The notes: generated by a model not told the origin, from the sequence alone. 64,000 nucleotides of DNA from Longimicrobiales bacterium (GCA_965237965.1 CBDEGT010000002.1:77496-141495), one strand, 5' to 3'. Counted from the first letter of the stretch, positions 11,005-47,062 are shown. Program-made: numbers and translations.

Positions 11005-13432
<2,428 letters not shown>

Positions 13433-16864: not shown

Positions 16865-16914
16865 ATCACCCCACCTCCTACCGGACCTGTGCCAGTGACC
16901 GGCCCCCCCCCGAT

Positions 16915-16985: not shown

Positions 16986-17014
16986 CACCGCGTCGGCTGG
17001 GTCGACAGCCTCCC

Positions 17015-17890: not shown

Positions 17891-18050
17891 GGCAGTGAGC
17901 CGGACGGCTTGGCTTTACGGAGCTGGAAACAGAGTGTACTTGGGGTCCTAGCCCGCCAAAAAAGAACAGCGCCCCCCAGCACCGAGCGCCCTACTCCTCT
18001 CGGATGATCAACTGAGTCGTCGGCTTGGTCACTTCCCCACCCTCCGTTCC

Positions 18051-18841: not shown

Positions 18842-21310
<2,469 letters not shown>

Positions 21311-25283: not shown

Positions 25284-25554
25284 GGATCCGGAAGAAGGAT
25301 ACGACTTACGGTACACTCGAGGGTCCGAAAGGGATTCGGGCCCCCGGGCTGCTCGCTAGGGGAAGCTCTGAGCAAGGCCCTTCTGGGGGCGGTGCGAGAC
25401 GGAGGGAGCCGGTTTCAGCGGTCTTGGGGGCGATGACGGGCTGAAAACGCGCCCAACCGGCATGTTCTGGCCGATGATCCCCTCGTTGCGCCCCGCGTGG
25501 GCGGATGTTTCCCGCGCCGGCCGCTCACGCCGTCGAATAGCGGCCCGCCACAAG

Positions 25555-27948: not shown

Positions 27949-28242
27949 TCAGTGCGGCGCGAACGCGCTCAGGACGGGGTCTTGAGCTGGATTGTTGGGA
28001 TAGTTGTGCAGCGGCAGGATGTGCGGGTGCTGCAGGTTCGCGGTCGTCTTGATCTCGGCCAGGAACCGCTCGGCCCCGACTACAGCGGCTAGCTCAGGTT
28101 TCAGAACCTTGAGCGCGACCTTGCGCTCGTGCCGGAGGTCGTCGGCCAGGTAGACCGTCGCCATCCCGCCCTCGCCGAGCTGGCGCTCGATGCGGTAGCG
28201 GCCTTCGAGAGCCGCGTTCAGGCGGTCAGGCACATCGCTCAT
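27949..28242 (-). pseudogene. Ser/Thr protein kinase N-terminal fragment (97 codons; kinase-5' module copy D plus ~60 further kinase codons)
   Basis: [74 protein letters not shown] then divergence and stop. Contains the kinase Gly-loop and VAIK Lys. Confidence 0.7.
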
Positions 28243-28479
28243 GCTGACTCCCAGGGAGAACGGAGTCCTAGGCCATGCAGCGATCTATTATCTATAGGGA
28301 GGCGGCTACAGTTTGGGATGAGAAGGGGGGGATGGCCAGCCTCCCGGCCACGGAGTCGCAAGACTTCAAGCGCTCCAGAACGCAAACGGGCTCAATGGCC
28401 CCAATCGACCGTGGGAGACTGGCCAAATGGACACTACCCCCAAGCAGGTGACCGGTGTCGACGTAAGCGATCGCTTTAG

Positions 28480-29686
28480 GGAAGCTCTGAACAAGACGGG
28501 TGTAGTTTCGTGGTATGAAACGACCGGGGAGCTGTGAGCGGGCCATGGAGCTTCAGATGACTTTTGCGGAACTGGAGTACGATTCGAAGAAGCGGCGGAC
28601 GCGCCGGGAGATCTTCCTGGAGAAGATGGAGGGGCTGATTCCCTGGCAACAGCTGGAGGATCGGATCGAGCCGTTCTATGCGAAGGCTGGCCGTGGCCGC
28701 CGCCCCTATCCGCTTGGGGTGATGCTGCGGGTTCATTGTGTGCAGCTGTTCTACAACTTGAGCGATCCGGGCATGGAGGATCTGCTCTACGAGGTGGAGT
28801 CGGTGCGCCGCTTTGCGGGTCTGCGCCTGAGCGGTCCTTTGCCGGACGAGACGACGATCCTGAACTTCCGCCACCTGCTGGAGACGCAGGGCTTGGGGAT
28901 GGGGTTGTTCGAGGAGATCAATGTGCATCTGGCGTCTCTCGGGCATCGGTTGAAGACGGGGACGATCGTGGATGCGAGCATCATTGACGCGCCGTCGTCG
29001 ACGAAGAACCGCAGGGGAGAACGGGATCCGGAGATGCACCAGACGAAGAAGGGAAACCAGTGGTACTTCGGGATGAAGGCGCATATCGGGGTGGACGCCG
29101 AATCGGGTCTGGCGCACAGCTTGGCGACGACGGCCGCCAACGCGGCGGACGTGACGCAGGCGTGCGTGCTGCTGCATGGTGACGAGACGGAGGCATGGGG
29201 CGACGCGGGCTACCAGGGTGTGGACAAGCGCCCGGAGAACAGGGGTTGCGGCGTCGCCTGGCAGGTGGCGATGAAGCCGGGCAAGCGTCGCCTGCTCGAT
29301 CGGGACGGCGCCGAGGCGGCGGCCGAGAAGCGCAAGGCATCGGTGCGGGCGAAGGTGGAGCATCCGTTCTTGTATGTGAAGCGGCGCTTCGGGTACGGTA
29401 AGGTGCGCTACCGGGGACTGGCGAAGAACACGCAGCGCATCGCGTTGCTGCTCGGGTTCTCGAATCTGCTCATCGCTGGCCGCTACGCGACCGGATAACG
29501 CGGGGCCCATGCGCCCATGGGCCGCGCGAGGGCGGGAGCCGGACACATCGAAGCGACTTCCTGACGGTTCGGACCGTTTATCCGGCGCGCCAGCCAACAC
29601 TTCATCGCTCCGATAGGCCTTCGTAACCGGATCTTCGAACCGCAACCGATCGCGTTCCTCCCAAAATGGGGTTGTTCAGACCTTCC
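28480..29686 (+). mobile_element. IS5-B copy 2 (1207 bp), 4-bp TSD TTAG, inserted in the 5' end of the IS110 transposase gene
   Basis: TTAG at 28476..28479 and 29687..29690. IRs as in copy 1. Confidence 0.85.
28545..29498 (+). CDS. IS5 family transposase (IS5-B copy 2)
   Basis: Identical protein to 25743..26696. Confidence 0.85.
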   Translation: MELQMTFAELEYDSKKRRTRREIFLEKMEGLIPWQQLEDRIEPFYAKAGRGRRPYPLGVMLRVHCVQLFYNLSDPGMEDLLYEVESVRRFAGLRLSGPLPDETTILNFRHLLETQGLGMGLFEEINVHLASLGHRLKTGTIVDASIIDAPSSTKNRRGERDPEMHQTKKGNQWYFGMKAHIGVDAESGLAHSLATTAANAADVTQACVLLHGDETEAWGDAGYQGVDKRPENRGCGVAWQVAMKPGKRRLLDRDGAEAAAEKRKASVRAKVEHPFLYVKRRFGYGKVRYRGLAKNTQRIALLLGFSNLLIAGRYATG

Positions 29687-29739
29687 TTAGCACGTTCTGC
29701 ACGGTCGATGAGGCCGGTGAGATCGAAGAGGAAGGTCGC

Positions 29740-31245: not shown

Positions 31246-31356
31246 TCTGACCCCAATCGCGCATCGGTGACAGCCTATGTAGCCGGAAGGTCTGCGGTGG
31301 AACATGGGCGCAAAATGGGATCACTTGTGGCGGTCGGTCACACCGTCATCGCCATC

Positions 31357-31440
31357 AGGTCGGCACCAGCCGCTTCAGCTCCTCGAAGAAGTTCTGGACG
31401 AGGATGACGGTGACGCGGTCTTCGGCCGATCCACATCAGC
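31357..31440 (-). repeat. kinase-3' module, copy 1 (last ~24 codons ..VILVQNFFEELKRLVPT* plus stop), immediately downstream of floA
   Basis: 45 of 47 bp identical to copy 2 at 40296..40385, including synonymous positions. Confidence 0.55.
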
Positions 31441-31546
31441 CAGGTATCCGAAACCGTTCATCCTAGAGGCTCCGATTGTTCTCCTCCTCACCGCCCGAGA
31501 TCGACTCACGCATGGAGGTGTCCGACTGGACGTCGCCGTAACGCAT

Positions 31547-32455
31547 TTAGTTCATCACCTCGAGGTTCCCGCCCCGGAAGGCCTCGGCGATCGCCAGCGG
31601 AACCTTGGCCTCGGCCTCGACCAGATCGGCCCGCTTCTCCTGTACCTTGGCGAGGTTCTCCTGCTCCAGCGCGACGGCCATCGCACGCCGCTCCTCGGCG
31701 CGCGCCTGGGCGACCCGCTTGTCGGCCTCGGCCTGATCGGTCTGCAGCTCGGCGCCGATGTTCTTGCCGACGTCGATGTCAGCGATGTCGATGGAGAGGA
31801 TCTCGAACGCCGTACCGGCGTCCAGACCGCGTGCGAGCACGGTCTTGGAGATGTTGTCGGGGTTCTCGAGGACGGCCTTGTGGGAATCCGCGGAGCCGAT
31901 GTTCGACACGATGCCCTCGCCCACCCGTGCCAGGACCGTCTCCTCGCCTGCGCCTCCCACCAGTCGATTGATGTTCACCCGCACCGTGACGCGCGCGATC
32001 GCGATCAGCTGGATGCCGTCGCGCGCCATGGCCGTTACGCGCGGAGTCGTGATCACCTTCGGGGTGACCGACACCTGGACGGCCTCGAACACATCGCGCC
32101 CGGCAAGGTCGATAGCGGCCGCCTGCTGGAAGGACAGCTCGATATTCGCCTTGTCCGCGCTGATCAGCGCGTGCACCACGCGATCGACCGCACCGCCGGC
32201 GAGGTAGTGCGCCTCGAGGTCCCCGATGTCGAGCACGATTCCCGCCTTGGTCGCCCAGATCAGGGGACGCACCACGGCGGGCGGGTTCACCTTGCGGAGC
32301 CGCATTCCCACCAGGTACCCAATGCCGACCTTCGCGCCGGCGGAGATCGCCTCGACCCACAAGCGCACCGGAATCGCCCAAAGGATCAGGCTTACGAGGA
32401 TGAAAGCGCCGACCAACGTGATCAGGCTGGTCGAAAAGAAGAGCTCGTCAGTCAT
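31547..32455 (-). CDS. floA: flotillin-like protein FloA (UPF0365/YqfA family)
   Basis: [56 protein letters not shown].. is the characteristic FloA N-terminus and SPFH body. Confidence 0.8.
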
Positions 32456-32582
32456 GGGCAGCCCTCGATGGAATCGTGGGTGATTGGGGAGCGTACACTC
32501 CGGCGGAGATCGGTCGTAGGGGACAGGCCCGGCCTCCACTATAACGCATCGCCGCGGCCACTGGAGCAGTACCGGCCAGGTA

Positions 32583-32712
32583 GACGGTCGCCATCCCACC
32601 CTCACCGAGCTGGCGCTCGATGCGGTAGCGACCTTCGAGGGCCGCGTTCAGGCGGGTGACGGGATCGGGCTGGTTCACCCGATCAAGATGCCGGTCAGGG
32701 CGGTAAACCTAT
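32583..32712 (-). repeat. kinase-5' module, copy E, directly upstream of floA (fragment ORF stop overlaps floA ATG: ATGACTGA)
   Basis: Encodes [36 protein letters not shown].. then out-of-family sequence. Confidence 0.6.
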
Positions 32713-32787
32713 GGCCATGTCTGGTGCCATGGGGGTCCTCCTCCTTGTGACAAGTGCAGGGTGTCTTGCAGTGGGGGGTCAGGTCCA

Positions 32788-33408
32788 TCACCGGCGGGCT
32801 CGTATCGGAATCAGAACCCGCGTGCCCGCCCATTCCACGACCAACTCCACGGCGTCCACGGCCAGACTCCTGAAGGAAAAGGTCAGCAACTCGACCGGCT
32901 CCTCCGTGGGCTCGACGGGCACGATCCCCGAGCCGATGTCCTGCTCCCGCACCAGGTCATCGATAGGGATGCCCCATCGCTCTACTTCCGCATTGACGAT
33001 GACCTGCCATTCCTCCCTCGACGGGATTACATAGAGCGAGTAGGAGCCGGACTCCAGCGGGACCCCGGCGATCTCCACCGGGACCGGAACGCTGATAGAG
33101 GTGGCTTCGTTGGCTCCGAGTCGCCACGGCTCTCCGTAGGGCACCACCCGGCCCATGATTGGTCGGCCAACCGTCCGGGGGCGGCTGTAGCATACCTTGA
33201 TCTCCTCACCGTCCAGTCGGACGGTGGCCGAATCGAAAGGGCTGATTCGGATGTCAAGATCAGAGGGATCGTCTCGAATCCAGCAGGCAATATCCACGGG
33301 GCCTACCACCTGCTGGCCTTCGGCTAGGCCGTGACCAGCAAGCTGCAGAACACAACCGAGGACAACGCCTCTGAGACGTGGCACACCCACAGTAAATCGC
33401 ATCTTCAA
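32788..33408 (-). CDS. DUF2911-like secreted protein
   Basis: Signal peptide. ..PWRLGANEATSISV..GSYSLYVIPSREEWQVIVNAEVERWG.. matches the DUF2911 pattern. Confidence 0.5.
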   Translation of the reverse strand: MKMRFTVGVPRLRGVVLGCVLQLAGHGLAEGQQVVGPVDIACWIRDDPSDLDIRISPFDSATVRLDGEEIKVCYSRPRTVGRPIMGRVVPYGEPWRLGANEATSISVPVPVEIAGVPLESGSYSLYVIPSREEWQVIVNAEVERWGIPIDDLVREQDIGSGIVPVEPTEEPVELLTFSFRSLAVDAVELVVEWAGTRVLIPIRARR

Positions 33409-33502
33409 ATCACTCTCAAGGGGCCGGGTGGCGCGTTTTGCGAGTCAAGCCGAGGTTCACGTCCGTGGCATCTGCAGCTCATCGAAGCACGCTGATCCAT
33501 AC

Positions 33503-33685
33503 CGTCGCCATCCCGCCCTCACCGAGCTGGCGCTCGATGCGGTAGCGACCTTCAAGGGCCGCGTTCAGGCGGGTGATGGGATCTGGGCGGTTCACCCGAT
33601 CAAGATGCAGGGCAGGACAGCGAACCGCGAGAAAGCCCCTATATACAGGGGGGTGAGCGGAGGATCACGGCCAGCAGGCAGGCAG
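33503..33685 (-). repeat. kinase-5' module, copy F (longest; includes conserved upstream region), upstream of DUF2911 gene
   Basis: ..ccatcccgccctcaccgagctggcgctcgatgcggtagcgacc..ggatcacggccagcaggc. Confidence 0.6.
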
Positions 33686-33989
33686 TCTCTCTCGCCCCGG
33701 ATCACCTACCCCGTGGTTCCGCGCGCGCGTTACGGTTTGGGTGTGTGGTTGGGTTGTTCGCAGCCTCATGGTTCTGGCCTCGGTCGTAATCACCGTCATA
33801 TTCGTCGTCGCATGGCTCTGGGGTTGGTACGCGTCACTCGCTTCGTAACCAACTCCGGATTGTGGGGCGTGCGCGGCCCCGAGACGCACGGTCATATATT
33901 GAATCTTCTGCCCATGTCGGGCTCGGCCCCGACCAGCACGGGATCTAGTCCCAGTGACGCACCGTCTTCAACGTGGAGCACACTGAGCC

Positions 33990-35925
33990 ATGTCGAGCTT
34001 CTTGGCGCATGAGATCCGCGTACTCGTCGCCGCCCTCGGCATCGTCCTCTGCACGTCCGACGCTGTCGCTGCGCAGACCAACGGACGGGACGGCAGCGCG
34101 CCCTCCGCGCCCGCCGTCCGGATCGGTGACGAGCCGGTCATCGACGGCTCCCTCTCGGACCCGGCCTGGGAGGGGCTTCCCGTACTGACCGACTTCGTCC
34201 AGCGCATCCCGCGGGACGGGGAACCGGCCACACTGAGAACTGAGGTGCGGATCGGGCACGACGAAGCGGCGCTCTACGTGGGCGTGCGCGCGCACGACGA
34301 CCAGCCGTCTCTGATCGTCCCGGGCGAGGCGATCCGAGATTACGACCTCGCCCAGTCCGACACGGTCATGCTGATCTTCGACACGTACAAGGATGGAGTG
34401 AACGGCTTCGCGTTCGGCACGAACCCGGCCGGAATCGAGTACGATGGCCAGGTGGTGGACCAGGGCTCAGGAACCGGCGGGCTCCGCGGCTCGCTCGGAA
34501 CCGGGGGCGGTGGTGGCGCTGGGCGCCAGCAGGGCGGCTCGGGCGGTGGCTTCAACCTGAATTGGGACGGCAACTGGGAGGTGGCGACCGGCCGCGACGC
34601 GCAGGGCTGGAGCGCCGAATTCCGGATCCCCTTTTCGACGCTGCGCTACCGCGCCGGTGGACGGCAGGACTGGGGCCTCAACGTGCTGCGACGAGTACGC
34701 CGGGTGAATGAGGAATCGTCTTGGTCGGCGATCCCGCGCGAGTTCGACTTCAACCGCGTGAGCGAGGCGGGCACCCTGACCGGCCTCGAGCCGCCGGCAG
34801 TCCGGTCGGTCCAGCTCACGCCGTACGTACTCGGCTCCTCCGCGCGGAACTATGCGCTCGACGACCCCGGGTTCGACGAGAACGGCGAGGTGGGCGGCGA
34901 CGCCAAGGTGCAGATCACGCAGGGCCTCACCCTCGACCTCACTTACAACACCGATTTCGCGCAGGTTGAGGTGGACGACGTCCAGACCAACCTGACACGC
35001 TTCAGCATCCAGTTCCCGGAGAAGCGCCCGTTCTTCCTCGAGAACTCCGGGATGTTCTCCTTGGGGGGCCGCGGGGCAGACCTCTTCTTCAGCCGCCGCA
35101 TCGGGATCGCGCGCAACCTGAACCGGGTGCCCATACAGGGGGGTGGCCGGCTCTCGGGCAAGACGGCCGGGCTCAACGTCGGCCTGCTCCACATCCGCAC
35201 CCAGGAGCTGGACAGCGTCCAGAGCGGGCAAGCCTACTCTGTGGTTCGGCTCGCGCGCGAGCTGGGCAATCGTACCAGCATCGGAGGCGCGTTCCTGCAG
35301 CGGGACGGGCTGGAGGAGACTGACGACTACAACCGCACCTACGCTGTGGACGGGCAGCTGGGGATCGGCACCGCGTGGAACCTCAACGCCCTCGTGGCCC
35401 GCACCGAGACGCCTGGAATGGAAGGCCGGGACTACATGTTCAATGCAGGCGGCAGCTACAGCAGCCGCAACCTGAATCTCAACGGCAGCTTCAGCGAAGT
35501 CGGTGAGGACTTCAATCCCGAGGTTGGCTTCCTTCAGCGCTCCGGCTATCGATCGTTTGGCGGACGCGCGGTGATCTTCATCCGTCCGACGGATCTGTTC
35601 GGGCTACGTGAGCTCAGGCCGCACGTCAGGTTCAGCACCACGCGCGATCTCGAGACCGGTTTCGAGGAAACCTCGCAGGTCCACCTCGACCACCACTTCG
35701 AGTGGGACTCGGGGATGTTCTTCAGCCCCGCCTTCAACTGGAATCGCGAGGGGCTCGAGGAAGCTTTCTCAATCTCCGACAGCGTGATCGTGGCGCCAGG
35801 CACCTACGACGGCTGGGAGATGAGTTGGCATTTCTACACGAACCCATCGGCACCAGTCTCATTCGAGGCCCGCTTCACCAACGGCGCCTTCCTCTCGGGA
35901 AACCGGCGCGGATACTCTCGTCCAG
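33990..35925 (+). pseudogene. DUF5916/CBM9-like exported protein (carbohydrate-binding family 9 N-domain + beta-barrel), C-terminus truncated by IS110-like remnant
   Basis: Signal peptide. ..DGSLSDPAWEGLPVLTDFVQRIPRDGEPAT..NWDGNWEVATGRDAQGWSAEFRIPFSTLRY.. ORF runs out of family into the IS110-like sequence at ~35925. Confidence 0.55.
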
Positions 35926-36180
35926 GCCGCCTGGCACTACAGGATGCGACCCGCCGTGGGCAAGCAGCTCGAGAAGCGACAGCGCGGCCAACCGCCCGCC
36001 GTCATCGCCCATGCCTGGAAGTCCCAGCACCGGCTCCACAAGCTCTACCACCGCATCGCGGTCCGGAAATCGGCCCAGGTCGCTGTCGTCGCCGTCGCCC
36101 GCGAACTCGTCGGCTTCATGTGGGCCGTCATGCGTGAGCTCGAAATCGAACAGGCGACCGCGCTCGACGCGGCCGCGTAA
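35922..36180 (+). mobile_element. IS110-family 3'-terminal remnant (encodes ..AHAWKSQHRLHKLYHRIAVRKSAQVAVVAVARELVGFMWAVMRELEIEQATALDAAA*)
   Basis: C-terminal IS110 transposase signature. About 90% nucleotide identity to 11030..11200. Confidence 0.55.
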
Positions 36181-36265
36181 CCCAGACCAAGAGGACCCGA
36201 GGCACGATAGGAGGACGCTCGACCTAACTATTGGGGATTATATACCCTAGTGCCCAAGCCTTTCC

Positions 36266-36409
36266 TTACTTAGAGGGCTTGGGCGGGCTGTAGTCGATGA
36301 CGGACCGCAGGAGTTTGTCCGGTGTGGTCGGAATACTCACGTCAGCTTCTAGCTCGACTTTCGTCGGCTGGTAGGTTGAGGGCTTTTCGGGTTTCTTGGA
36401 CTTCTTCAT
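36266..36409 (-). CDS. small Lys/Pro-rich hypothetical protein (passenger)
   Basis: MKKSKKPEKPSTYQPTKVELEADVSIPTTPDKLLRSVIDYSPPKPSK. No homology recognised. Confidence 0.3.
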   Translation of the reverse strand: MKKSKKPEKPSTYQPTKVELEADVSIPTTPDKLLRSVIDYSPPKPSK

Positions 36410-36455
36410 GAGCGTCTCTCTCCAGCTTAGAACGGCAGTGATGATTCGGCGACCC

Positions 36456-37201
36456 CTACCGCGACCAAACGTTGTTGTCGTACTGTCGTCTCGAGTCATC
36501 GTTCACCCATTGCACGTAGGGACTCGAGTTCCAGTAACCGGTGTCGAGTACCCGAGCTATTGGCATCACCATTATTGACTTAGCACCCATATTTGCTAGT
36601 GCTCCAGCGGCACTGATGGCGGTCCCACCCGTGACCCATGTGTCCTCAACCAGGAGGACTCGCTCCCCGTCCGCACTCTCGCCGTCGCTGACGAAGCACT
36701 GGGGGCAGTAGGAGCCGCGGGTAGCAACCATGTCATCGTGGGGTTGGTACTCCAGCAACGGGACGAGCTTTTCCCGTAACGGTACCATCATCGCGAGTGC
36801 CTGCCGAAGCGGTTGGTCCATGAAGCTCCTTCCGCGCTTTGATGGTACGGGCGTCACTACTGTCACTTCCCCGCCTAGAAGTGCTTCGATATCTTCCCTG
36901 TTGGAGGCCAAGAACATCCACAGGACAGACACGAGTTGAGCTCGGTACTCCGGATGTCCGGCCTTGTAGTTCGCCATCTTGTTGTACCAAGCGCCAGGCC
37001 GCAGCGCGATGCTCACCGGAACAACTGATTGTAGCGTGTCCGCGGTGCCCCAGTACCACACAATCGTGTACAGGCTGGACAGTAGTTGTATCTATCGCCC
37101 TTCGGTCCCAAGCAACCTGGGCAAACCCAAGATTCAGCAACTGGCGCTACTTGTCTAAGATCTTGGACCACCGCTTGGAAGAATTCACAGACACTAGCCA
37201 C
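36456..37201 (-). pseudogene. ComF/ShosT-like phosphoribosyltransferase-domain protein (N-terminal CxxC..CxxC zinc ribbon + type I PRTase), frameshifted between the two parts
   Basis: Frame 1 (37013..37201): ..WVCPGCLGPKGDRYNYCPACTRLCG. Frame 2 (36456..37061): ..VTVVTPVPSKRGRSF..ERVLLVEDTWVTGGTAISAAGAL (PRPP-binding loop). Confidence 0.6.
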
Positions 37202-37209
37202 CCAAGCTG

Positions 37210-38161
37210 CTACGCGGTCAGGCTCAGTTCTGGTTCATTCTGAGCCTCGAGTCTCTCAAGGATTTCATTTGTTGACCCGACCTCAATCGCCACCGCCCCG
37301 TATGCTCCGTCCTCGACGTACTCCCTCGCCCACTCATACGACTCCACAAGGGATTTGAGTAGAAAGACCGCCCGTCCATGCTGCATCGCGACTCGGGCCT
37401 GCATTCGGGCTCCAGAGGTTTTACTCGCCTCGACCACGACGGTTGTGAGTGAAAGCCCAGACATCACGACATTACGCATGGGGAACGTCCAACGACGCGG
37501 GGTTTGGTGGGGAAAAAACTGACTCAATAGCGCCCCACCAGCATCCACGATTCGCGTGGCGAGTTTCCTGTTTACGGACGGATAGCAATGATCCAGGCCG
37601 GTTCCCATGACGGCGACCGTCCGACCGCCGGCCTCAAGTGTACTAGTGTGAACAGCCGTGTCGATACCGGCGGCCAACCCCGAGTTGATCGTAAACCCCG
37701 CTTCGGCTAGTTCAGACGCGAGAAGAGTTGCCCTCTTCAGCCCCGCGTCGGTCGCGTTCCTCGTGCCGACGATCGCAATAGACCTCGAGTCCATCTGCTC
37801 CCTCCAACTACCCTGCAGAAAGACTATTGGGGGGCGATCGAAGATTGAGTGAAGGTTATGGGTAGCATGGGTCTAGCACTGACCGAACGTCGATTCCTCG
37901 CTCGAGCCAGTCGTCGACGGCTATACGAGCTTCGTCGAGCTCATCAGAGGAAACGGTTCCTGCCAACCCACAATTAACCTCCGGGGTGCTGAACAGCACG
38001 TCATCCAGCGTCAGTTGGATGAGTTCCACAGCTGAGCCCACAAGGTCTATCAGCGTCGCGAGCTGGTCAACCCTGACTGGCTTTATTGCGGCTCTAATTA
38101 GAGCCGCAATAGCAGTTAGCTCGTCGCGGCGGTCGCCAGGGCTCAGATCCTTGAGGTCCAA
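37210..38161 (-). pseudogene. DprA/Smf-family (DNA-processing protein A-like, Rossmann/SLOG) protein, split by a frameshift in the linker
   Basis: N-part ..AVDDWLERGIDVRSVLDPCYP*. C-part frame reads ..NLHSIFDRPPIVFLQGSWREQMDSRSIAIVGTRNATDAGL..NSGLAAGIDTAVH.. The two frames overlap at 37856..37875. Confidence 0.65.
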
Positions 38162-38215
38162 GGCCGTTTTTCCGTTGAGGGGGTTGAGCGGGTGGCGTAA
38201 AACTCGTCTGGTACA

Positions 38216-39187
38216 TCACGCAACCAAGTCCTGATAGCGGAGCCGCTTACCGTCCAGGCCCCGGACCATTGCGGTCATCTGGTCTAGTGTGTCCTGATTA
38301 CGCTGGTTGTGGCGACCAGCGAACTCACCCACATAGCGGTCCAAGTGGGCGGCGGACATCTGGTGGTAGGTGCCGTGGTAGCCACGCTTGAGCATCGACC
38401 AGAAGGATTCGATACCGTTGGTGTGGGCCATCCCGTTCACATACTGACCGACACCATGTTGGACAGTTTCGTGAAAAGTCAAGCCCGTATAGGCCCTGTA
38501 TTCGTCGGTGTAGACGGTCGCTTCTGGCCTAGAGTGTTTCCGGACAAAGCCTTGCAGGGTTGTTGCGTCGGTGGATTCGACCACCTGAGCAACGACGGTA
38601 TTGGTCTCCCGGTCCTTGGCTCCCACGACCGCCGTCTTGCCCACGGGGCCACGGCCAGCCCGTAGCTTCTTGCTTGAGTGCTTGTTCCGCTCCTTGCCTC
38701 CTACGTAGGTCTCGTCCACTTCCACCGGCCCGACGAACGCGCCGGTGGACTCCCACGCTTCACGGAGACGGTGCGCTAGGTACCACGCGGTCTTCTGCGT
38801 GACCTTCAGGTCGCGGTGGAGCTTCATGCTCGACACGCCCTTCAGGTTCGTGGCCAACAGGTAGATGGCGATCACCCACTTCTGGAACCCTATGTTTGAG
38901 CCCTGTAGCGCGGTTCCCGTGCGGGCGCTGAACCGCCTCCGGCAATCGCGGCACCGGTAGGGCATGGTCTTGTGTTTCGCGCCTACCTGGACGTTCAGGG
39001 AGCCGCAAGGTGAGGGGCAAGCGATCCCATCCGGCCAACGCGCTTTGACGAACCATACTTCGGCTGACTCATCGTCAGGAAACAGATCGAGCAAATCGAT
39101 AAGCGCGAGGCCTTCGCGGTAGTGCTTTCCAGGTGCTCTCCGTGCCATTGAATCCTCTCTCGTTGGGCTGATTAATAATAGTGCCAA
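38216..39187 (-). CDS. IS1595 family transposase (N-terminal zinc ribbon + DDE_Tnp_IS1595)
   Basis: ..WPDGIACPSPCGSLNVQ..YRCRDCRRRFSARTGT..VEVDETYVGG..YTDEYRAYTGL..HTNGIESFWSMLKRG.. Confidence 0.85.
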   Translation of the reverse strand: MALLLISPTREDSMARRAPGKHYREGLALIDLLDLFPDDESAEVWFVKARWPDGIACPSPCGSLNVQVGAKHKTMPYRCRDCRRRFSARTGTALQGSNIGFQKWVIAIYLLATNLKGVSSMKLHRDLKVTQKTAWYLAHRLREAWESTGAFVGPVEVDETYVGGKERNKHSSKKLRAGRGPVGKTAVVGAKDRETNTVVAQVVESTDATTLQGFVRKHSRPEATVYTDEYRAYTGLTFHETVQHGVGQYVNGMAHTNGIESFWSMLKRGYHGTYHQMSAAHLDRYVGEFAGRHNQRNQDTLDQMTAMVRGLDGKRLRYQDLVA

Positions 39188-39409
39188 TCGGAGATAAAGT
39201 CAAGGGCCAATTGAGGTTAAATGGCGTCGCGGTCAAGGATTTACTGGCGGATTTACTGGCGGCGCTTGGGCACTAGGGTATATAATCCCCTAACTATTGG
39301 GTACGGCCCTCACGGGCCTCAATCCCAATCCATTAGTATTGAGCCAGCTCCAGACGAATCTGACTTCGTGCCGCGCTGGGTAGATACCTACCTAATCGGC
39401 GAATATTAG

Positions 39410-40221
39410 GGCCTGTTAACACTAAAGGCCCATTTGTATTATATTGGGGCTATGAAAATCACAGAGTCCCAATATCGTCGGATAGAGGCTTGCTTTCCAC
39501 GTCAGCGCGGCAATGTGAGCTTCTCCAATCTCGAAGTGCTTAACGCGATCCTGTATGTGGCCGAGCACGGCTGCAAGTGGCGCGGGTTGCCTGCGCGCTT
39601 CGGTAACTGGCATACGATCTACACCCGAATGAATCGCTGGGCCAGGGCAGGTGTGCTGGATCGTGTCTTTGCGGCCCTGCAGGACGAGCAGATCATCCGG
39701 ATCAAGATCGAAGCGCTGTCGCTCGACAGTACGATCGTCAAAGTGCACCCTGATGGCACCGGCGCGCTAAAAAAAACGGCCCGCAGGCCATCGGGAAGTC
39801 GCGTGGAGGCTGGACCACCAAGATTCATATGGTTGCCGCAGATGCTCGAACCGCGATAACCTTCTCGCTATCGCCAGGCCACAACCACGACGCACCCGAA
39901 GGACGCGAACTGCTACGCATGTTGAAGCCGGTACACTCCACTGTGTCGATGATCATGGACCGGGCCTACGAGGGGGCCGAAACACGGCAATTGGTGTTGG
40001 AGCTGGGGTTTACGCCGGTCGTGCCACCCAAACAGGGCCGTGTTAGCCCGTGGCAGTACGATCGAATCATGTATCGCCGTCGCAACGAAATAGAGCGGTT
40101 ATTTCGGCGACTCAAAGGCTTCAGAAGAATCTTCTCCCGCTTTGACAAGCTCGACGCGATGTTCACGGCCTTCATCCACTTTGCGCTCATCGTCGAGGCT
40201 CTCAGATAGTGTTAACAGGCC
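39410..40221 (+). mobile_element. IS427-group (IS5 family) element. IRs GGCCTGTTAACACTA / TAGTGTTAACAGGCC; inserted at a TAG/CTAG site 118 bp from the transposon TSD
   Basis: 15-bp perfect IRs at 39410..39424 and 40207..40221. Flanks ..atTAG|IS|CTAGtagg. Confidence 0.8.
39452..40209 (+). CDS. IS5/IS427 family transposase, orfA-orfB with programmed -1 frameshift at an A8 slippery tract
   Basis: MKITESQYRRIEACFPRQRG..LPARFGNWHTIYTRMNRWARAG.. A8 run at 39769..39776. orfB ..MDRAYEGAETRQLVLELGFTPVVPPK..ERLFRRLKGFRRIFSRFDKL.. Confidence 0.8.
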
Positions 40222-40295
40222 CTAGTAGGATCATCGTCGAAGCTGTCCTCGGGTCCTCTTCGCTATTTGAAACCCTTGCGCCAGCCCTTTCATAT

Positions 40296-40385
40296 TAGTT
40301 CGGCACCAGCCGCTTCAGCTCCTCGAAGAAGTTCTGGACGAGGACGAGCGGCTGCTCTGGTTCCGAACCGCGGGCGTTCCACCCG
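40296..40385 (-). repeat. kinase-3' module, copy 2 (..EPEQPLVLVQNFFEELKRLVPN*), downstream of NHL lipoprotein gene
   Basis: 45 of 47 bp identical to copy 1. Confidence 0.55.
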
Positions 40386-40566
40386 ACAGACCTGCGCCTC
40401 CTGCTGGGTTACGAAAGCCCTCAGGTCCATCTCTGCCGCTGGGCGGATCTCCCATCTCTGACGACCAAACGCCAAGAATTGAGCGGTTCCATCAAGTTAC
40501 GGGTCGCGGCCGTCAGCGAGGACCCCGTCGCCGCAAGTCAGGACCGGTGTTGCGCTGATTGAATCT

Positions 40567-41775
40567 CTATCGGCTAATCGAGTAGCCCAGGCTCCGACCC
40601 ACGAGCTTACTCGGATCGGCATTGGGCTTGGGCACGAACTTGTCCACGTGCCCGGTATCGAAGTTGACCACGTATACGTTGCCATCTTGGTCCACATCCA
40701 TCTGGTGCGGTCGTGCCATGGCTCCGGGTGCTCGGGTCAACTCGGACGTTCGCCACGTCTCCAGAGCTCCCGTTGGTCCGTACCCACCCCCCGTAAATCC
40801 GTACGTGCCCCAGCCGTACTGATACTCCCCGCTCGTGTTGAACTTCATGATCCGATTCAGCACCGCAGAGGTCACCCAGACCGCGTCGTTCACGTCGATG
40901 CTGACGTCGACAGGGAAGAAGATCTCGGGCCATTCCTCGACGTATTCACCGTTGTCCGTGAAGACCTGGACGCGGCTGTTACCACGGTCAGCAACGTAGA
41001 CGCGACCGCTGCGGTCAACGTCGACGCCGTGGACGAGGTCGAACTGCCCGGGGCCGCTCCCGAGCTCGCCCCACTCCATCATGTACTCGCCGTCCGCATT
41101 GTACTTGACGATGCGCGAGTTCGTGTACCCGTCGGCGAGGAGAAAGCTACCGTCCGGGAGAAAGGCCAGTGACGCGTTCTGGCCAAAGTCGAACGGGCCC
41201 GGGTTCTTGTTCGCCCGCTGCTCTTCCCGGGTCTGGACAGGGTTCGGGTCCCTGAGCTGCATCACCAACTCGCTTCCGTCGTTCGTGAACTTCAGGACCT
41301 GCTCATGGACTCCGTTGCCCCCCCGCTCGACGACCCAGACGTGACGCTCCGGATCGTAGGGACTGATATAGATCGCATGCGGTCGGTTGAACAGCGAATC
41401 CCACTGCGACCACCGCTCGATGATGTTCCCGTCCCCATCGGCAACCACTACGTAGTTCGTGCCGCCAGGCCTTTCCGCCGACCCTCCGCTCGCGCCATAA
41501 ACAGGCGGAAACTCCCTGTCTCCCCACAACCCGATGATGATCCGGTCGGGGGTGTCCGCCGCAATAGCCGCCCCCTGTCCCCACGTCCAGGTCTCATCAT
41601 GATCCGGCGCCGCCTTCCACCAGCCCGGCACGGCGTCGTACTCCCCCGTCCTTTCGTCCCCACCCTTCTGGGCCACCCGCTGCGCCGTAGTACTCTCGCT
41701 CTCCATAGCGCAACTGGACAACACAACCACGCCACCGGTGACGAAAAGGGCCAGGACAACGGCTAACATTCGCAT
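40567..41775 (-). CDS. NHL-repeat (six-bladed beta-propeller) lipoprotein
   Basis: Lipoprotein signal MRMLAVVLALFVTGGVVVLSSC. Repeated ..DGNIYVADxGNxRVQ.. blades (NHL pattern). Confidence 0.7.
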   Translation of the reverse strand: MRMLAVVLALFVTGGVVVLSSCAMESESTTAQRVAQKGGDERTGEYDAVPGWWKAAPDHDETWTWGQGAAIAADTPDRIIIGLWGDREFPPVYGASGGSAERPGGTNYVVVADGDGNIIERWSQWDSLFNRPHAIYISPYDPERHVWVVERGGNGVHEQVLKFTNDGSELVMQLRDPNPVQTREEQRANKNPGPFDFGQNASLAFLPDGSFLLADGYTNSRIVKYNADGEYMMEWGELGSGPGQFDLVHGVDVDRSGRVYVADRGNSRVQVFTDNGEYVEEWPEIFFPVDVSIDVNDAVWVTSAVLNRIMKFNTSGEYQYGWGTYGFTGGGYGPTGALETWRTSELTRAPGAMARPHQMDVDQDGNVYVVNFDTGHVDKFVPKPNADPSKLVGRSLGYSISR

Positions 41776-42076
41776 GATGCCTTTCCTTCCTTAGCAGGGA
41801 GCCTCAATGGACAGCCCACATGTGAGCACGATCCGGTGTCACCTGGCGATGAGCCGGCCAGCCCTCCCCTTCCCGTGAGACGTTCGGTGTTCCCCGGGGG
41901 GGTGGGAACCAGGTTAGCAGAGGCGTTTCCTAGGTGTCAACAAGAGTTCCCCCAAAAAGTGCCAAGCGAGCTAAAGAGGGGGCGATTCCCCGCTAGTGTA
42001 TAACGGCTTCGCTGGTTCATCACCCTAAGCAGGTTCACTAGCTATGTGAAGAACCCCCCTAGATTCCGACACTTCA

Positions 42077-42140
42077 GCGAAACCCCGGAAGCGGCGCCTT
42101 CAGCTCCTCGAAGAAGTTCAGGACGACGATCATCCCCTTG
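42077..42140 (-). repeat. kinase-3' module, copy 3 (diverged: ..MIVVLNFFEELKAPLPGFR*), downstream of metalloprotease gene
   Basis: Core cttcagctcctcgaagaagttc is shared with copies 1 and 2. Confidence 0.5.
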
Positions 42141-42185
42141 GCGCCCCCAGCCCCCTTCTATCTATTGGACACGGGCTCGTGCGTG

Positions 42186-43865
42186 CTACGGTTCCTTACG
42201 GACACGCACACGATATCCCGTGCTGAGGTCCTCAAGCACCTCGACGGTCAGGCCGATCGCCGGATCCTGGAAGGTAGATACCCGTTCCTCTCCGACATTG
42301 AACGCGACTCGATTGGCCGGCTCACAATGGTTGACAATGTCAGGTTGAGCCTGCTGAATCCAAATCGGCACGTCACCGCTCTCTACGTTGCCGTCCACGG
42401 AATAGACCAACACGCCTTCTTGGCAGATCCGCGCGTCAAAGCCGATGCGCTTCCGCGCCTCTATCACGTAAGCTGTCGTTTCGCTCGTTGGGATCACAAT
42501 CGCCTGAAACTCGTCGGGTTGCTCGAACGTGAACACGGTCCTCTCGAACTCACCGAAGGTGATGCAATCGACGTCCTCGTCCAGCACCCATCCTATCTTC
42601 CACTTATGCCAGACCAAGAAGTGGGCAAGGGGGGTTGCAAATGGGAGGCTCATCGGGTCCCAGGCGCCGACTGGCGACATGTTCTCCCAAAAGTCTTCGG
42701 GGTTCGCGCCACCAAGGTCGGGGAGACCGAAGAGGTGCCCGATTTCGTGCACCAGGATGTTGTAGCTGTCAACATCGGTGGCGCCATGCCGGACTTCCAC
42801 TCCGTCGACGGACACGCCGGCGCCAGACTGCTCAGCGTATGAGCTGGTAAATGAGTTGGTAGCGTTCGCGAGTGAGTTCTTTGGGACGACGATGTGGACC
42901 AGGTCGAACTGCGTGAAGTCCACTGAGGCATCTGCCGCATGGATGGCGTCAATTACCCATTCCCAATGGGTACGCACTTCATAGTACTCCATGGGGTGAG
43001 GCAGACGAATCCAGTTCGGAGTTGATTCCGCGGTATTCACCATGCGGCCGTTCGAAGCTTCCGAAAACCACTCCTCGGCCAGCGTCCAAATCTCATCGAA
43101 GACCAGTTCCGTCGAATCAGTTCCCGGAAAGTCAGGGAAGTCCACGAAGAGAACGAGTGATCGCACCACGCCAACGGGACGGAAATACTTCTCCGGCCGA
43201 TGCACAAAGGCCTCCTGTTTGATCCCCTCGATCTTGCAGGTCTCGATGGGAACCGGGTCCGAGACGGCTATGAGGCGGGAACCGACCACACCATCCGTCG
43301 TGGCGAAAACGTCGGCGGCCCCGTAGGCAATCCCTGTTACAACACCCGTTGGGCTGACTTCGACGATCTGCCCATCCGAGGATTCCCATGTGATCGACTT
43401 GTCCTCAACCCGTGTTCCCCCTAGGTCCAACGCCTCAGCAGTTAGCTGGGCGGTTTGCCCTGGCGGGATCATGACCCCCGCGTTGGATCCGATGGATACG
43501 GAGGCGACCATCTGCTCGACCGTGATGGACGCGGACCCGCTCACCGGACCTGCGGTGGCAGTAATCGTGGTGGTCCCGTTTCCGATGGTCTTGACGAGGC
43601 CGCTTGAGGCATCCACGGTCGCAACGCCGACGTTCGATGACGACCAGGCGAATGACTGACCCGAGATCGGGGTCCCTGAAGCGTCTTTCGCGACCGCGCT
43701 GAATTGTTGATCGACGCCGACGGATGCCAAGGTCTGCTCAGACGGTGAAACTTCGATAGTGGCGACTACTGGCTGCGTTGGGCCGGACGGTCCTGCGGGT
43801 TCCTTATCGCCCCCACAGGCACCGACCAGGAGGACAGACAGAGAGACGGACAACACTGTCGCCAT
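42186..43865 (-). CDS. M6-like zinc metalloprotease lipoprotein with Big_2 (bacterial Ig-like) domains. Its ATG and the 26 in-frame codons upstream are supplied by kinase-5' module copy G
   Basis: MATVLSVSLSVLLVGACGG lipobox, Ig-like ..TATIEVSPSEQTLASVG..TITATAG.. repeats, and zincin motif ILVHEIGHLFGLPDLGG. Confidence 0.65.
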   Translation of the reverse strand: MATVLSVSLSVLLVGACGGDKEPAGPSGPTQPVVATIEVSPSEQTLASVGVDQQFSAVAKDASGTPISGQSFAWSSSNVGVATVDASSGLVKTIGNGTTTITATAGPVSGSASITVEQMVASVSIGSNAGVMIPPGQTAQLTAEALDLGGTRVEDKSITWESSDGQIVEVSPTGVVTGIAYGAADVFATTDGVVGSRLIAVSDPVPIETCKIEGIKQEAFVHRPEKYFRPVGVVRSLVLFVDFPDFPGTDSTELVFDEIWTLAEEWFSEASNGRMVNTAESTPNWIRLPHPMEYYEVRTHWEWVIDAIHAADASVDFTQFDLVHIVVPKNSLANATNSFTSSYAEQSGAGVSVDGVEVRHGATDVDSYNILVHEIGHLFGLPDLGGANPEDFWENMSPVGAWDPMSLPFATPLAHFLVWHKWKIGWVLDEDVDCITFGEFERTVFTFEQPDEFQAIVIPTSETTAYVIEARKRIGFDARICQEGVLVYSVDGNVESGDVPIWIQQAQPDIVNHCEPANRVAFNVGEERVSTFQDPAIGLTVEVLEDLSTGYRVRVRKEP

Positions 43866-43950
43866 CCCGCCCTCACCGAGCTGGCGCTCGATGCGGTAGC
43901 GGCCTGACAGGGCTGCGTTCAGGCGGGTGACGGAGTCAGGCATTAGTTGC
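43856..43950 (-). repeat. kinase-5' module, copy G (fused in frame to the metalloprotease gene)
   Basis: [30 protein letters not shown].. The kinase GGMATV supplies the lipoprotein start. Confidence 0.6.
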
Positions 43951-43994
43951 TGCCCTTACGTTGGCGAAGCTCCCCGAACGGCTTGCCCCGATCC

Positions 43995-44815
43995 TCAGTA
44001 GCGCAGCATCCGACGCCGTGGGACGAGGTTTGGCCGACCAAGAAACGCGTATTGGATGTTCTTGACGTAGTTGCTGAAGATACGTCGAACCTGGTAGCCC
44101 GCGACGCCGCGGAGATCCTGCACCCAATCGGTGACGGACTGGGGGCTTCCTCTGAGGAGTACGGATGACGCGAGGAAGTCAGCCTGCTGCGAGCTAGTCT
44201 GGTTGGACAGATAGTACTCCAGGCTTGAACGCCTGGCGTAGTTTCTGAGCTGGAATCGAGGGATCGTGCTTTCCCTGAACGTCGAGATGGCATCATTGAT
44301 GATCCTCATCGATTCATCGGGATCCACGGTGCTTACGTAGATCCCCCCTCCGCTAGCTGCTCGGTCTACTATTTGTGCCCCCGCTGCATAGGACAGTCCC
44401 CTCGCCCTGATTTCGTTGGAGACGGACCCGGCAAGGATTCTCACCGCGACCTGGAACGCAGGGTAGTGTTCATGTGTGCTCGTCGGCCCCCCGAAGTAGC
44501 CGAGGATGTAATTTGTCGGGAGATCGCGAGCCTCTACGGGTTGTAATTTGTCGGGAGATCGCGAGCCTCTACTCTGAGCCCCGGGTCCTCTTTCGCCCAG
44601 GGTTGTGGAAGCTGCCAAGAGTAGGAGCCGACCGGGAGCGCCCTAAGCGTACTCCTGATCGCGGATTCGACGGCGGATCGATCGATCGCGCCGACTACAG
44701 ACAGCAGCATCCTGGAGCGAATAAACTGCTCGCCGTGATAGGACCTACCACACGAATGCGTGGCGACACTTCGGGGTGCGGCCACCGACTGGAGATCCGC
44801 ACCCTGAACGAACAC
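43995..44815 (-). pseudogene. M16-family (insulinase-like) peptidase, C-terminal non-catalytic domain only; 5'-truncated and frameshifted by a ~35-bp tandem duplication
   Basis: ..LLSVVGAIDRSAVESAIRSTLRALPVG.. and ..FQVAVRILAGSVSNEIRARGLSYAAGAQI.. Direct repeat GTAATTTGTCGGGAGATCGCGAGCCTCTAC appears twice around 44510..44575. Confidence 0.6.
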
Positions 44816-45711: not shown

Positions 45712-46896
45712 TCAGCGGATCGGTTCGGCCTCCGGGTCTCGACGCTTGCCAGCGAGATACGCGGCCCAAGCCTGCATGACCTCGCGCCTCCGGTCCAGCA
45801 GGTCCGAACGGGCGTAGGCGGCCTCGGCCTGACTGCGGACCTTGTGTGCGAGCGCCGCCTCCGCCACCTCGCGCGCCACGCCCGTCTCCGAGCACCAGTC
45901 GCGGAACGAGGACCTCATCCCGTGGGGCGTTCCTGCGATGCCGAGACGCCGGAGCAACTTGCTGAACATCGAGGCGTGGATCCTTCCTCCCTTCGCGCCC
46001 CGGAACACGATCCCGCCGCCGCCGTGGAGCTTCCGGGCTTCCTCGAGGATCTCCAAGGCCCGCCCCGACAGGGGAACCCGGTGCTCGCGCTTCGCCTTCA
46101 TGCGGTCGGCGGGAATGGTCCAGACATCGAGCTCGACCTCGTCGCACGCCGCGCCCCGGACCTCGTTCGAGCGTGTCGCGGTCAGGACCATGAACTCGAA
46201 CGCCAGCCGGACACCGGCATGGGACTCCGAGTCGCGGACCTTGGCCAGAGCCGCCGCCACCTCGCCGTGCGGGAGCGCCTTGTGATGCCGGATGGCGTTG
46301 CCGTTACGCGGCAGCGCGGCGGCGATGGCGTCCCCCGCCGGGTTGTCCGGCCGGTAGCCCTTCGCGACGGCCCACTTCATCACCGCGCCGATCCGCTGGT
46401 GCACGGCCCTCGCGGTCGCGGGCTTGCTCGACCAGATGGGCTTGAGGATGGCGAGCACGTCGGCCGTCGCGACCTCGCTCACGCGCTTCCGGCCGATGCG
46501 CGGATGGGCGTAGTCCCGCAGCGTCTGCCGCCACTGCCCGGCCATGCGGGATGGGTTCTTCCAGGTCGGCGAGTGGATCGCCATCACCTTCTCGACGGCC
46601 GCCTCGAAGGTGGGAACCCCCGCGTCTCTCGGGTCGTGGCCCCAATGGACCGCCCGCCTGTACTCCAGCGCCTTCTCCCTCGCCTCCCTGAGCGTCACGA
46701 CCGGGTACGAGCCCAGTCCGAGATTGGTGGGCTTCCCCGCCACTCGAATGCGCTGGCCCCAAGACTTGGAGACGCGCCCGGACTTCATCCGGTGGACGCG
46801 GAGGTACAGGCCGAGCCCGCCGAGCCCGCCGTCGCCGTAGCGTCCCGGCGTCTTCACCCGCGCCACGAAGGCGGCCGTAAGGGGTCGTTTACGCAT
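45712..46896 (-). CDS. tyrosine-type site-specific integrase (P4-like, N-terminal DUF4102 arm-binding domain)
   Basis: ..RYGDGGLGGLGLYLRV.. (DUF4102) and C-terminal ..HGMRSSFRDWCSETG..LAHKVRSQAEAAYARSDL.. (R..H..R..Y catalytic region). Confidence 0.85.
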   Translation of the reverse strand: MRKRPLTAAFVARVKTPGRYGDGGLGGLGLYLRVHRMKSGRVSKSWGQRIRVAGKPTNLGLGSYPVVTLREAREKALEYRRAVHWGHDPRDAGVPTFEAAVEKVMAIHSPTWKNPSRMAGQWRQTLRDYAHPRIGRKRVSEVATADVLAILKPIWSSKPATARAVHQRIGAVMKWAVAKGYRPDNPAGDAIAAALPRNGNAIRHHKALPHGEVAAALAKVRDSESHAGVRLAFEFMVLTATRSNEVRGAACDEVELDVWTIPADRMKAKREHRVPLSGRALEILEEARKLHGGGGIVFRGAKGGRIHASMFSKLLRRLGIAGTPHGMRSSFRDWCSETGVAREVAEAALAHKVRSQAEAAYARSDLLDRRREVMQAWAAYLAGKRRDPEAEPIR

Positions 46897-47062
46897 GCGG
46901 TGTATCCTACCTGTGTATCACATATCGACGGATACACAATGGTACAATACGGTACGTACCGGCACAAGAGGGAGCCTGTAAACACGGCTCGGATACGCCG
47001 TATCACATTGTAATAACACACTTTACGGAACACTACGGGACCGCATGGGACGATGTTCGCGA

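Follow-up and report, generated by a model that had tools for sequence, protein, structure and literature searches.

The DNA considered here is a 64-kb stretch of a Longimicrobiales genome (GCA_965237965.1, CBDEGT010000002.1:77496-141495) from a long-read metagenome assembly, hereafter the window. On its minus strand, a short sequence that encodes the end of a protein and its stop codon is found three times, at the sites given for it in an earlier note made from the sequence alone and, as stated there, just 3′ of unrelated genes. By Pfam these genes encode FloA (copy 1), an NHL beta-propeller protein (copy 2), and a Big_2 lipoprotein that weakly matches reprolysin-like zinc proteases (copy 3). 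For simplicity, the latter gene is referred to as the protease gene and the repeated sequences as 3′ stubs. A 24-mer core, CAGAACTTCTTCGAGGAGCTGAAG, has exact matches at 31373-31396 and 40313-40336 and a third match, with one mismatch, at 42098-42121, while 100 dinucleotide-preserving shuffles of the sequence gave no match (0/100), such that no copies are expected by chance. In a repeat search the module was recovered as repeat family D7, with copies 1 and 2 sharing 94% identity over 54 nucleotides (nt); by direct count there are three differences (51/54 identical), consistent with the 45/47 identity claimed earlier. The two copies do end in different stop codons, TGA (31357-31355) in copy 1 and TAA (40297-40295) in copy 2, and copy 3 ends in TGA (42076-42074).

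The minus-strand tails read ..RVTVILVQNFFEELKRLVPT for copy 1, ..PLVLVQNFFEELKRLVPN for copy 2, and ..MIVVLNFFEELKAPLPGFR for copy 3, each followed by the stop codon. Copy 3 differs from the tail ..KRLVP-stop proposed for the set and terminates in ..VVLNFFEELKAPLPGFR. The stubs are also longer than the 16 to 25 codons first given, with 26, 37, and 27 open codons ahead of the stop in copies 1, 2, and 3, respectively, and the coordinates were slightly corrected as well. No stub has a start codon or a plausible gene body. In copy 1, kinase-like sequence continues upstream through an in-frame TGA (..DERFRIPG-stop-CGSAEDRVTVILVQNFF..), which extends the relic to ∼35 codons. The sequences 3′ of the three stop codons are mutually unrelated, and insertion sequences (ISs), not genes, come after two of the three stubs.

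The origin of the stubs was found by scanning one genome per species for the exact 21-mer common to all three copies. The scan returned 44 loci, so the further copies on which the repeat interpretation depended do exist. One family accounts for 38 of the 44, nearly all of them from Gemmatimonadota (Longimicrobiales, Gemmatimonadales) or Vicinamibacterales. At ∼20 loci the motif closes an open frame of ∼880 to 950 codons. These full-length genes encode proteins of ∼900 amino acids that begin with the sequence of the window's 5′ module and end in ..LVQNFFEELKRLVPN-stop, following the pattern ..ELILVQNFFEELKxRVPN-stop. Loci L003, L008, L018, L021, L023, L033, L035, and L041 (loci and contigs from other assemblies carry L numbers) each combine the 5′ module at the N terminus with ..NFFEELKxxVPN-stop at the C terminus. 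Pfam places Pkinase at residues 16 to 267 of the full-length relatives and PD40 repeats in their C-terminal half; by domain content, the family is therefore one of predicted Ser/Thr kinases of the Hanks type that carry a PD40 (TolB-like) beta-propeller at the C-terminal end.

The other repeat family of the window, D1 (seven copies, 126 nt), encodes exactly the N terminus of this kinase. Since D1 and the 3′ module encode opposite ends of the same genes, the 5′ and 3′ modules are the two ends of one kinase family, which settles in the affirmative a question that the earlier note had posed: single full-length genes carry both. In tblastn searches, the stubs match residues ∼860 to 931 of L008, L018, L022, and L033 (copy 1 matches residues 898 to 931 of L022, copy 2 the C termini of L008 and L033), the matches being short, with E-values of 2e-4 to 4e-4. 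Copy 3 had no tblastn match to the kinases, and its family assignment is based on the DNA core match together with the alignment. None of the window copies is a functional member of the family, as they have no start codon, kinase domain, or propeller, whereas the full-length relatives have both domains. The three repeats are real and their identity is resolved: they are orphan 3′ ends of a multicopy family, as had been suggested, and their nature is the ordinary one of gene relics.

An alignment of 42 family 3′ ends on the 21-mer accounts for the appearance of a module. DNA conservation spans ∼55 nt (approximately -15 to +39 relative to the start of the 21-mer) and falls to background right after the stop codon, which lies five codons past ..ELK in 29 of the 42 ends; a three-base periodicity is visible upstream. 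Because DNA conservation ends at the stop codon across the family, the module has sharp boundaries. These edges, given also the unrelated sequences past the stop codons, are the limits of coding conservation and do not delimit a mobile unit. The core is written in the preferred high-GC codons, and this bias explains how a 21-nt core can be identical even between phyla. Family-wide, DNA conservation is limited to approximately the first 100 and the last ∼18 codons, so that only relics of the two ends remain recognizable and come to resemble discrete modules. The earlier description of a discrete repeat module is not borne out, since the edges are those of the coding conservation and stub lengths in other genomes vary from 14 to ∼200 codons.

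The same kinase family has left remnants elsewhere in the window. A tblastn search of the whole 64 kb with 14 full-length kinases returned only N-terminal matches (within the first ∼81 aligned residues) and C-terminal matches (the last 16 to 34 residues); no fragment of the kinase interior was found by this search, though the catalytic domain is well conserved. The inventory consists of seven 5′ stubs, one promoter-only remnant, and the three 3′ stubs (Table 1). Six of the 5′ stubs align to the family over ∼19 to 67 codons and the seventh over the first ∼80. The 5′ stubs lie 0 to 150 nt ahead of the start codon of the next gene, and in one case the reading frame continues into a lipoprotein signal peptide. 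Read along the minus strand, the remnants and genes form three blocks: 5′ stub-protease-3′ stub-NHL-3′ stub, 5′ stub-DUF2911-5′ stub-floA-3′ stub, and 5′ stub-SnoaL-like-5′ stub-TAXI/DctM. In the interval from copy 3 to the NHL gene, a further and very short 5′ stub (promoter plus ∼4 codons) appeared plausible by eye; it was discarded because a profile built from 99 promoter regions failed to recover it.

Table 1. Kinase remnants in the window and the genes that lie between them
Feature	Position	Strand	Remarks
3′ stub, copy 1	31355-31462	minus	∼35 kinase C-terminal codons, DERFRIPG-stop-CGSAEDRVTVILVQNFFEELKRLVPT-stop, with in-frame TGA inside; begins at floA stop codon
3′ stub, copy 2	40295-40375	minus	..SEPEQPLVLVQNFFEELKRLVPN-stop; ∼190 nt 3′ of NHL gene and ∼60 nt from IS5-family element (∼39395-40230)
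3′ stub, copy 3	42074-42157	minus	KGAGGAKGMIVVLNFFEELKAPLPGFR-stop; begins ∼30 nt past protease stop codon
5′ stub	43857-43964	minus	In-frame fusion to the protease's lipoprotein signal peptide; same junction in L046
Big_2/zinc-protease-like lipoprotein gene	42186-43943	minus	Between 5′ stub and 3′ stub copy 3
NHL beta-propeller gene	40567-41775	minus	Between 3′ stub copies 3 and 2
5′ stub with promoter region	33491-33676	minus	Upstream of DUF2911 gene (32788-33408)
5′ stub with promoter region	32574-32716	minus	∼120 nt upstream of floA start
floA	31463-32455	minus	Between 5′ stub and 3′ stub copy 1; in-frame TAA 31547-31549, altered C-terminal frame
Longest kinase fragment of the window	28003-28263	minus	First ∼80 codons align to family; frame then cut beside IS5-family copies
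5′ stub	17741-17901	minus	Truncated past RYRIER; upstream of DUF4440/SnoaL-like gene
5′ stub	16912-16996	minus	Upstream of TAXI-type TRAP solute-receptor gene and its DctM permease
Promoter-region-only remnant of 5′ module	13472-13617	minus	Found by promoter-region profile; adjoins IS3-family element
5′ stub with promoter region	802-984	minus	Truncated past ..IECQLG

The history of copy 1 can be followed in relatives of the floA locus. L053 (84% nt identity) has the native context yggT-nfeD-floA-orf172 with no kinase sequence, and two short-read assemblies from other samples, L051 and L052 (90% nt identity), have the same stub directly after floA. The recurrence of the junction in these independent assemblies indicates that it is real and has been inherited. 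The first codons of the stub overlap with the native stop codon of floA. Compared to its counterpart in L051/L052, the window stub has two differences in ∼100 nt up to the core and then six in the next 17 nt, and for the first 13 of those 17 nt it matches the window's own copy 2. A tail swap that starts right after the core indicates a crossover or conversion tract, i.e., ectopic recombination between family members. The window floA itself reads TAA where intact homologs read ..GVMDYMRY.., and its last codons are ..GGEEENNRSL-stop as opposed to ..GGEEGGQSEPVG-stop. This in-frame TAA is probably real and not a read error, because a truncated FloA form of 302 amino acids (protein P0122) is on record for two contigs.

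At the protease locus, L046 (95% nt identity) shares with the window the 5′ junction, GGMATV joined to L.VSLS, and upstream similarity ends at the start codon of the stub. On the 3′ side, L046 has a different decayed relic, VVLVVVNWLEE.KERVGN-stop, right at the stop codon of the protease gene, followed by another 5′ stub that is cut by an IS. In L178, where the protease is 65% identical in protein sequence and has its native N terminus, a last-blade fragment (kinase residues ∼770 to 817) is found ∼100 nt past the protease stop with the tail VVQNWLEEVAAQVGN-stop, followed by a 5′ fragment (residues 19 to 70). The L178 relic is an erosion intermediate of a kinase formerly located 3′ of the protease. 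The remnant after the same gene is thus larger in L178, 27 codons long in the window, and only VVLVVVNWLEE.KERVGN-stop in L046. Protein P0005 (L049, 8001-9920), a 42%-identical protease homolog, has an independent N-terminal fusion in which kinase residues 1 to 20 are joined to ∼60 to 105 and then to its own lipoprotein signal peptide; P0006, a close relative of P0005, has no kinase fusion but a 72-codon 5′ stub after the gene. The NHL relatives L054 (88%) and L057 (80%) have only the gene and a short upstream region in common with the window. The 3′ stub is absent after the NHL gene in both, and in L054 an IS3 remnant and a 5′ stub in inverted orientation lie downstream. In all of these comparisons, similarity stops at gene boundaries beside kinase stubs. 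Exact-sequence look-ups of the NHL and protease proteins of the window returned no record.

Two further features of these loci were observed. At 7530-7822 of L178, the 3′ relic is joined straight to a 5′ fragment without the first ∼18 codons (TGA, then ..IAIQRELGESGMAAVYLADD..), so the start codon is not always kept. In addition, the 3′ relics at 1818-1900 of L046 and ∼2850-2900 of L127, two unrelated assemblies, are of an NW[FL]EE..GN-stop subtype and have ∼45 nt conserved past the stop (AGGYTCAGATCCCCTGGC..CGCGTCTTCGTGGAAG); in L046 this stretch runs into the promoter of the next 5′ module. Some tandem kinases may therefore share a conserved junction unit consisting of a 3′ end, a spacer, and a 5′ start.

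Stubs are common outside the window as well. Among the 38 family loci, 20 are intact, eight are cut by the end of the locus, and ten are stubs or rearranged, which amounts to 10 of 30 classifiable 3′ ends in other genomes, or about one third. Three of the ten (L006, L020, and L028) are "mini-kinases" that keep both ends and have lost the interior. The join in L028 falls at an ATCCTG (Ile-Leu) codon pair, and family members have Ile-Leu near both ends, making microhomology at this join plausible. A metagenome scan with a 39-nt 5′-module pattern gave 84 matches, and in 41 of these the kinase homology ends after 22 to 122 residues though the contig goes on. The genes that follow encode a gamma-glutamyltranspeptidase, a leucine-rich-repeat protein, DinB, an alpha/beta hydrolase, a sulfatase, Spo0M, an ABM monooxygenase, and Big_2 lipoproteins. 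It should be noted that the ratio of these 41 stubs to ∼4 longer genes is unusable as a frequency; many contigs end right at the module, and the ratio is inflated because short-read assemblers break in the ∼300-nt conserved 5′ region of intact genes yet bridge short stubs. Tandem 5′ stub-gene units occur in L137, L092, L107, L133, and the window. Two metagenome units also have a 3′ stub after the gene, one with the sulfatase (L127) and one with the ABM monooxygenase (L070). A near-identical copy of the latter unit, L090, has no recognizable 3′ relic after the ABM gene. In the metagenome contigs from JGI (L058-L137), the kinase 5′ module was seen to consist of promoter, start codon, and 20 to 80 codons ahead of unrelated genes.

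Our preferred interpretation, which we consider probable without regarding it as secure, is that each of the three copies is the eroded 3′ end of a different former member of the kinase family and also acts as dispersed homology. The kinase bodies would have been lost by deletions or illegitimate joins for which the neighboring functional gene set the outer limit, and this limit could explain why several stubs start 0 to 30 nt past the upstream stop codon (∼190 nt for copy 2). Short leftovers would then persist because further neutral deletion has so little sequence left to hit. As near-copies of dozens of dispersed paralog ends, they could undergo ectopic homologous recombination or gene conversion, of which the floA tail swap is a direct example, and this would place stubs at breaks in gene order and exchange flanking DNA from the 5′-stub start codons onward. 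In themselves, the 3′ stubs are probably without function. The 5′ stubs, on the other hand, retain the promoter of the family together with its start codon, and are probably what now drives the genes downstream; that promoter and start are kept close to the next gene fits promoter capture.

Known systems resemble the stubs in part. As in bacterial pseudogene remnants, start codons are missing, in-frame stops are present, intact paralogs exist, the region is IS-rich, and relatives retain erosion intermediates. Unlike typical remnants, those described here consist almost exclusively of the outermost native ends of one family, make up ∼1/3 of classifiable 3′ ends, and often lie right at a neighbor's stop codon. 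Repeat-mediated rearrangement, as known for ISs and rrn copies, is similar in that stubs mark changes in gene order among relatives and one stub is mosaic, switching at the core; it differs in that the repeats here are conserved coding ends of a paralogous family, down to ∼50 nt, and not mobile elements. For the 5′ stubs only, a precedent exists in putative mobile promoters, defined as highly similar upstream segments ahead of non-homologous genes (Matus-Garcia, Nijveen and van Passel 2012, PMC3488235). Here too, similar segments of at least 100 nt lie ahead of non-homologous genes, within and between genomes. At the level of sequence, the 126-nt, seven-copy D1 agrees with the mobile-promoter definition of ≥50-100 nt with ≥80% identity ahead of non-homologous genes. 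Its copies precede the floA, DUF2911, SnoaL-like, TAXI-TRAP, and protease genes, in addition to the 41 metagenome stubs ahead of diverse genes. In contrast to mobile promoters, the segments described here include 20 to 80 kinase codons and derive from one gene family, and the 3′ stubs have no counterpart in that system. Literature searches on this kinase family in Gemmatimonadota found nothing relevant, and the stub and turnover pattern was not found described in the literature searched.

On their own, the 3′ stubs are gene debris, and their value is that both repeat families of the window are explained as the ends of one kinase family. They also point to a pattern in which this Gemmatimonadota family turns over fast enough for terminal stubs to be common and the 5′ stubs, ahead of many unrelated genes, are likely donated promoters. 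For annotation, stubs have the consequence that spurious N-terminal "kinase" extensions and chimeric single-protein gene calls arise, of which P0001, P0002, and P0005 are examples.

Several observations weigh against erosion as a full account. The remnants keep the native outer ends, as all seven 5′ stubs of the window have the start codon and five of the seven have a detectable promoter region, and simple neutral erosion does not readily account for this survival; among 3′ stubs from other genomes, which were selected via the C-terminal motif, the constant retention of the end is partly a selection effect. Several stubs begin a few nucleotides past the neighbor's stop codon, yet 26 to 37 seemingly useless codons remain. 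Several unrelated genes are flanked precisely by a 5′ stub on one side and a 3′ stub on the other, namely the protease gene and floA in the window, the sulfatase gene in L127, and the ABM monooxygenase gene in L070 (with the 3′ relic missing in L090), and such units look like replacements of a kinase body. Lastly, the 95%-identical protease genes of the window and L046 are followed by unrelated 3′ stubs at or near the stop codon.

These points invite the alternative that the kinase ends are portable homology arms, such that a gene between a 5′ and a 3′ stub replaces the body of any paralog by double crossover, in the same or another Gemmatimonadota genome. Dispensable kinase genes would be landing pads whose promoter drives the newcomer. 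We regard this as possible but unlikely. The recurrence of stub-flanked units with unrelated cargo fits the proposal, as do units with the same cargo in different flanks whose homology begins at the stub start codon (the window compared to L046, and a DinB unit in L092 compared to L115). The switch point of the floA stub at the end of the 3′ core, the identity of the core across orders and even phyla, and the tandem 5′ stub-gene units are also in line with it. However, 3′ homology of only ∼45 to 55 nt is marginal for RecA-dependent exchange, and the post-protease 3′ stubs of the window and L046 differ from the stop codon on, with no switch inside the module. The L178 locus, with its native protease N terminus, shows an erosion intermediate, stub lengths vary widely, and most 5′ stub-gene units have no 3′ stub. 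No pair of filled and empty alleles was found, and ordinary ectopic recombination between dispersed repeats would swap flanks anyway. Quite unlikely, in our estimation, is the broader proposal of a recombinase-free cassette system in which genes between stubs are swapped into kinase paralogs of the same genome or, following DNA uptake, of other Gemmatimonadota, with the kinase promoter then driving their expression. If true, cassette exchange would be a new route of gene mobility without a dedicated recombinase.

We see only a slim chance that the 3′ stubs are kept for a role in cis, either as a transcript 3′-end or stability element of the upstream gene or as a promoter or UP-element for the sequence downstream. 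Stubs persist although the DNA beside them has been cut back nearly as far as the stop codon of the upstream gene, the ∼45 nt past the stop are conserved in some members (L046 compared to L127), and tandem kinases have very short spacers, with the next gene 1 to 150 nt past the stop. The floA stub is also kept at ∼98% identity in L051/L052 (two mismatches in ∼100 nt relative to L051), but the neighboring 3′ third of the floA gene is no less conserved, which leaves no excess constraint, and this lead was dropped. The suggested terminator or structured RNA 3′ of the stop did not materialize. A terminator scan of the stubs and downstream sequence gave no terminator-like site, i.e., no hairpin followed by a T-run at any stub, and Rfam at gathering thresholds gave no match at the stubs, the only hits in the window being two ALIL pseudoknots of IS3 elements. 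The predicted folds have z-scores of -1.45, -1.33, and +0.20 for ∼135-nt segments and -2.4, -1.8, and -0.2 for shorter segments; none is exceptional against same-length genomic windows, 14 to 39% of which fold equally well. The post-stop sequences of the three stubs are, moreover, unrelated, and two of the three give way to ISs. The core has inverted repeats on either side in copy 1 (GCGTCACCGTCATC / GATGACGGTGTGAC) and copy 2 (GTTCGGAACCAG / CTGGTGCCGAAC); as hairpin arms they were discarded, since the z-scores of -2.4 and -1.8 on the shorter segments are matched by 14 to 24% of same-length genomic windows.

Orphan 3′ ends that include the stop codon are also the classic signature of integrative elements that enter the 3′ end of a gene, supply a new 3′ end in its place, and leave the displaced original behind, as at tRNA genes. 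The window has a P4-type tyrosine integrase gene (45712-46917), is IS-rich, and has a gene order unlike that of its relatives. Nevertheless, duplicated attachment sites are disfavored, and we consider this origin very improbable: no intact kinase is present in the 64 kb as the reconstituted target, the only tyrosine integrase of the window adjoins no stub, and the window has no tRNA genes. Each segment between stubs is a single chromosomal gene (floA, NHL) with 80 to 98% identity to vertically inherited homologs, stub lengths range from 14 to ∼200 codons, and the core 21-mer had no matches in viral contigs. An artefact of assembly or sequencing, i.e., chimeric joins at repeats in a low-coverage long-read metagenome, can hardly be credited, for although an independent 11-kb contig of the same sequence, L045, is labeled 2.09x (it differs by four indels only) and near-identical proteins show frameshift-like differences, the floA-stub junction recurs in two short-read assemblies from other samples (L051, L052), the protease 5′ junction in another sample (L046), and analogous stubs in dozens of unrelated assemblies.

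Two further candidates were rejected. A mobile repeat of the miniature inverted-repeat transposable element or repetitive extragenic palindrome type was dropped, as similarity covers the conserved coding tail alone, does not continue past the stop codon, and has no defined ends independent of coding; the inverted repeats around copies 1 and 2, considered as the ends of such a repeat, are not exceptional against background. The orphan C-terminal modules of Rhs and contact-dependent inhibition systems resemble the stubs in being displaced 3′ ends with a short conserved stretch able to recombine with full-length paralogs. They differ in that the stubs have no variable toxin tip, immunity gene, or adjacent full-length gene, and conservation extends to the last residues of the protein, with nothing variable beyond them. 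A cassette of this type was rejected: the stub ends at the invariant C terminus, ISs or the NHL gene lie downstream, and no full-length gene lies upstream.

The remaining observations concern the mobile elements and other repeats of the window. Its mobile elements comprise four IS5-family copies, two IS3 copies, IS110, IS1595, and IS256-type transposases, and one P4-type integrase. The two ALIL pseudoknots, which are IS3 frameshift elements, have equal scores and lie at 13038-13154 (minus) and 19120-19236 (plus) in inverted IS3 copies. This IS3 pair brackets a peroxiredoxin gene, the SnoaL-like gene, the TAXI-TRAP operon, and two 5′ stubs, and resembles a composite transposon. The IS5-family element at 1986-2856 has a 100%-identical copy at 25360-25554 and 26762-27441, split by an insert of ∼1.2 kb (25555-26761) that is itself a related element, ∼72 to 76% identical to the element it splits. 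A near-identical inverted copy of the insert is found at ∼28474-29690, and the kinase 5′ fragment at 28003-28263 ends beside this IS cluster. A 34-nt sequence, GGATGTAATTTGTCGGGAGATCGCGAGCCTCTAC, is present twice in tandem with 97% identity at 44504-44572, between an M16-peptidase fragment and the P4-type integrase gene. Lastly, a 189-nt direct repeat with 91% identity occurs at 11038-11226, where it overlaps the 3′ end of an integrase-like open reading frame (11005-12453), and at 35917-36105, where it overlaps the 3′ end of a DUF5916 gene (33990-36137).

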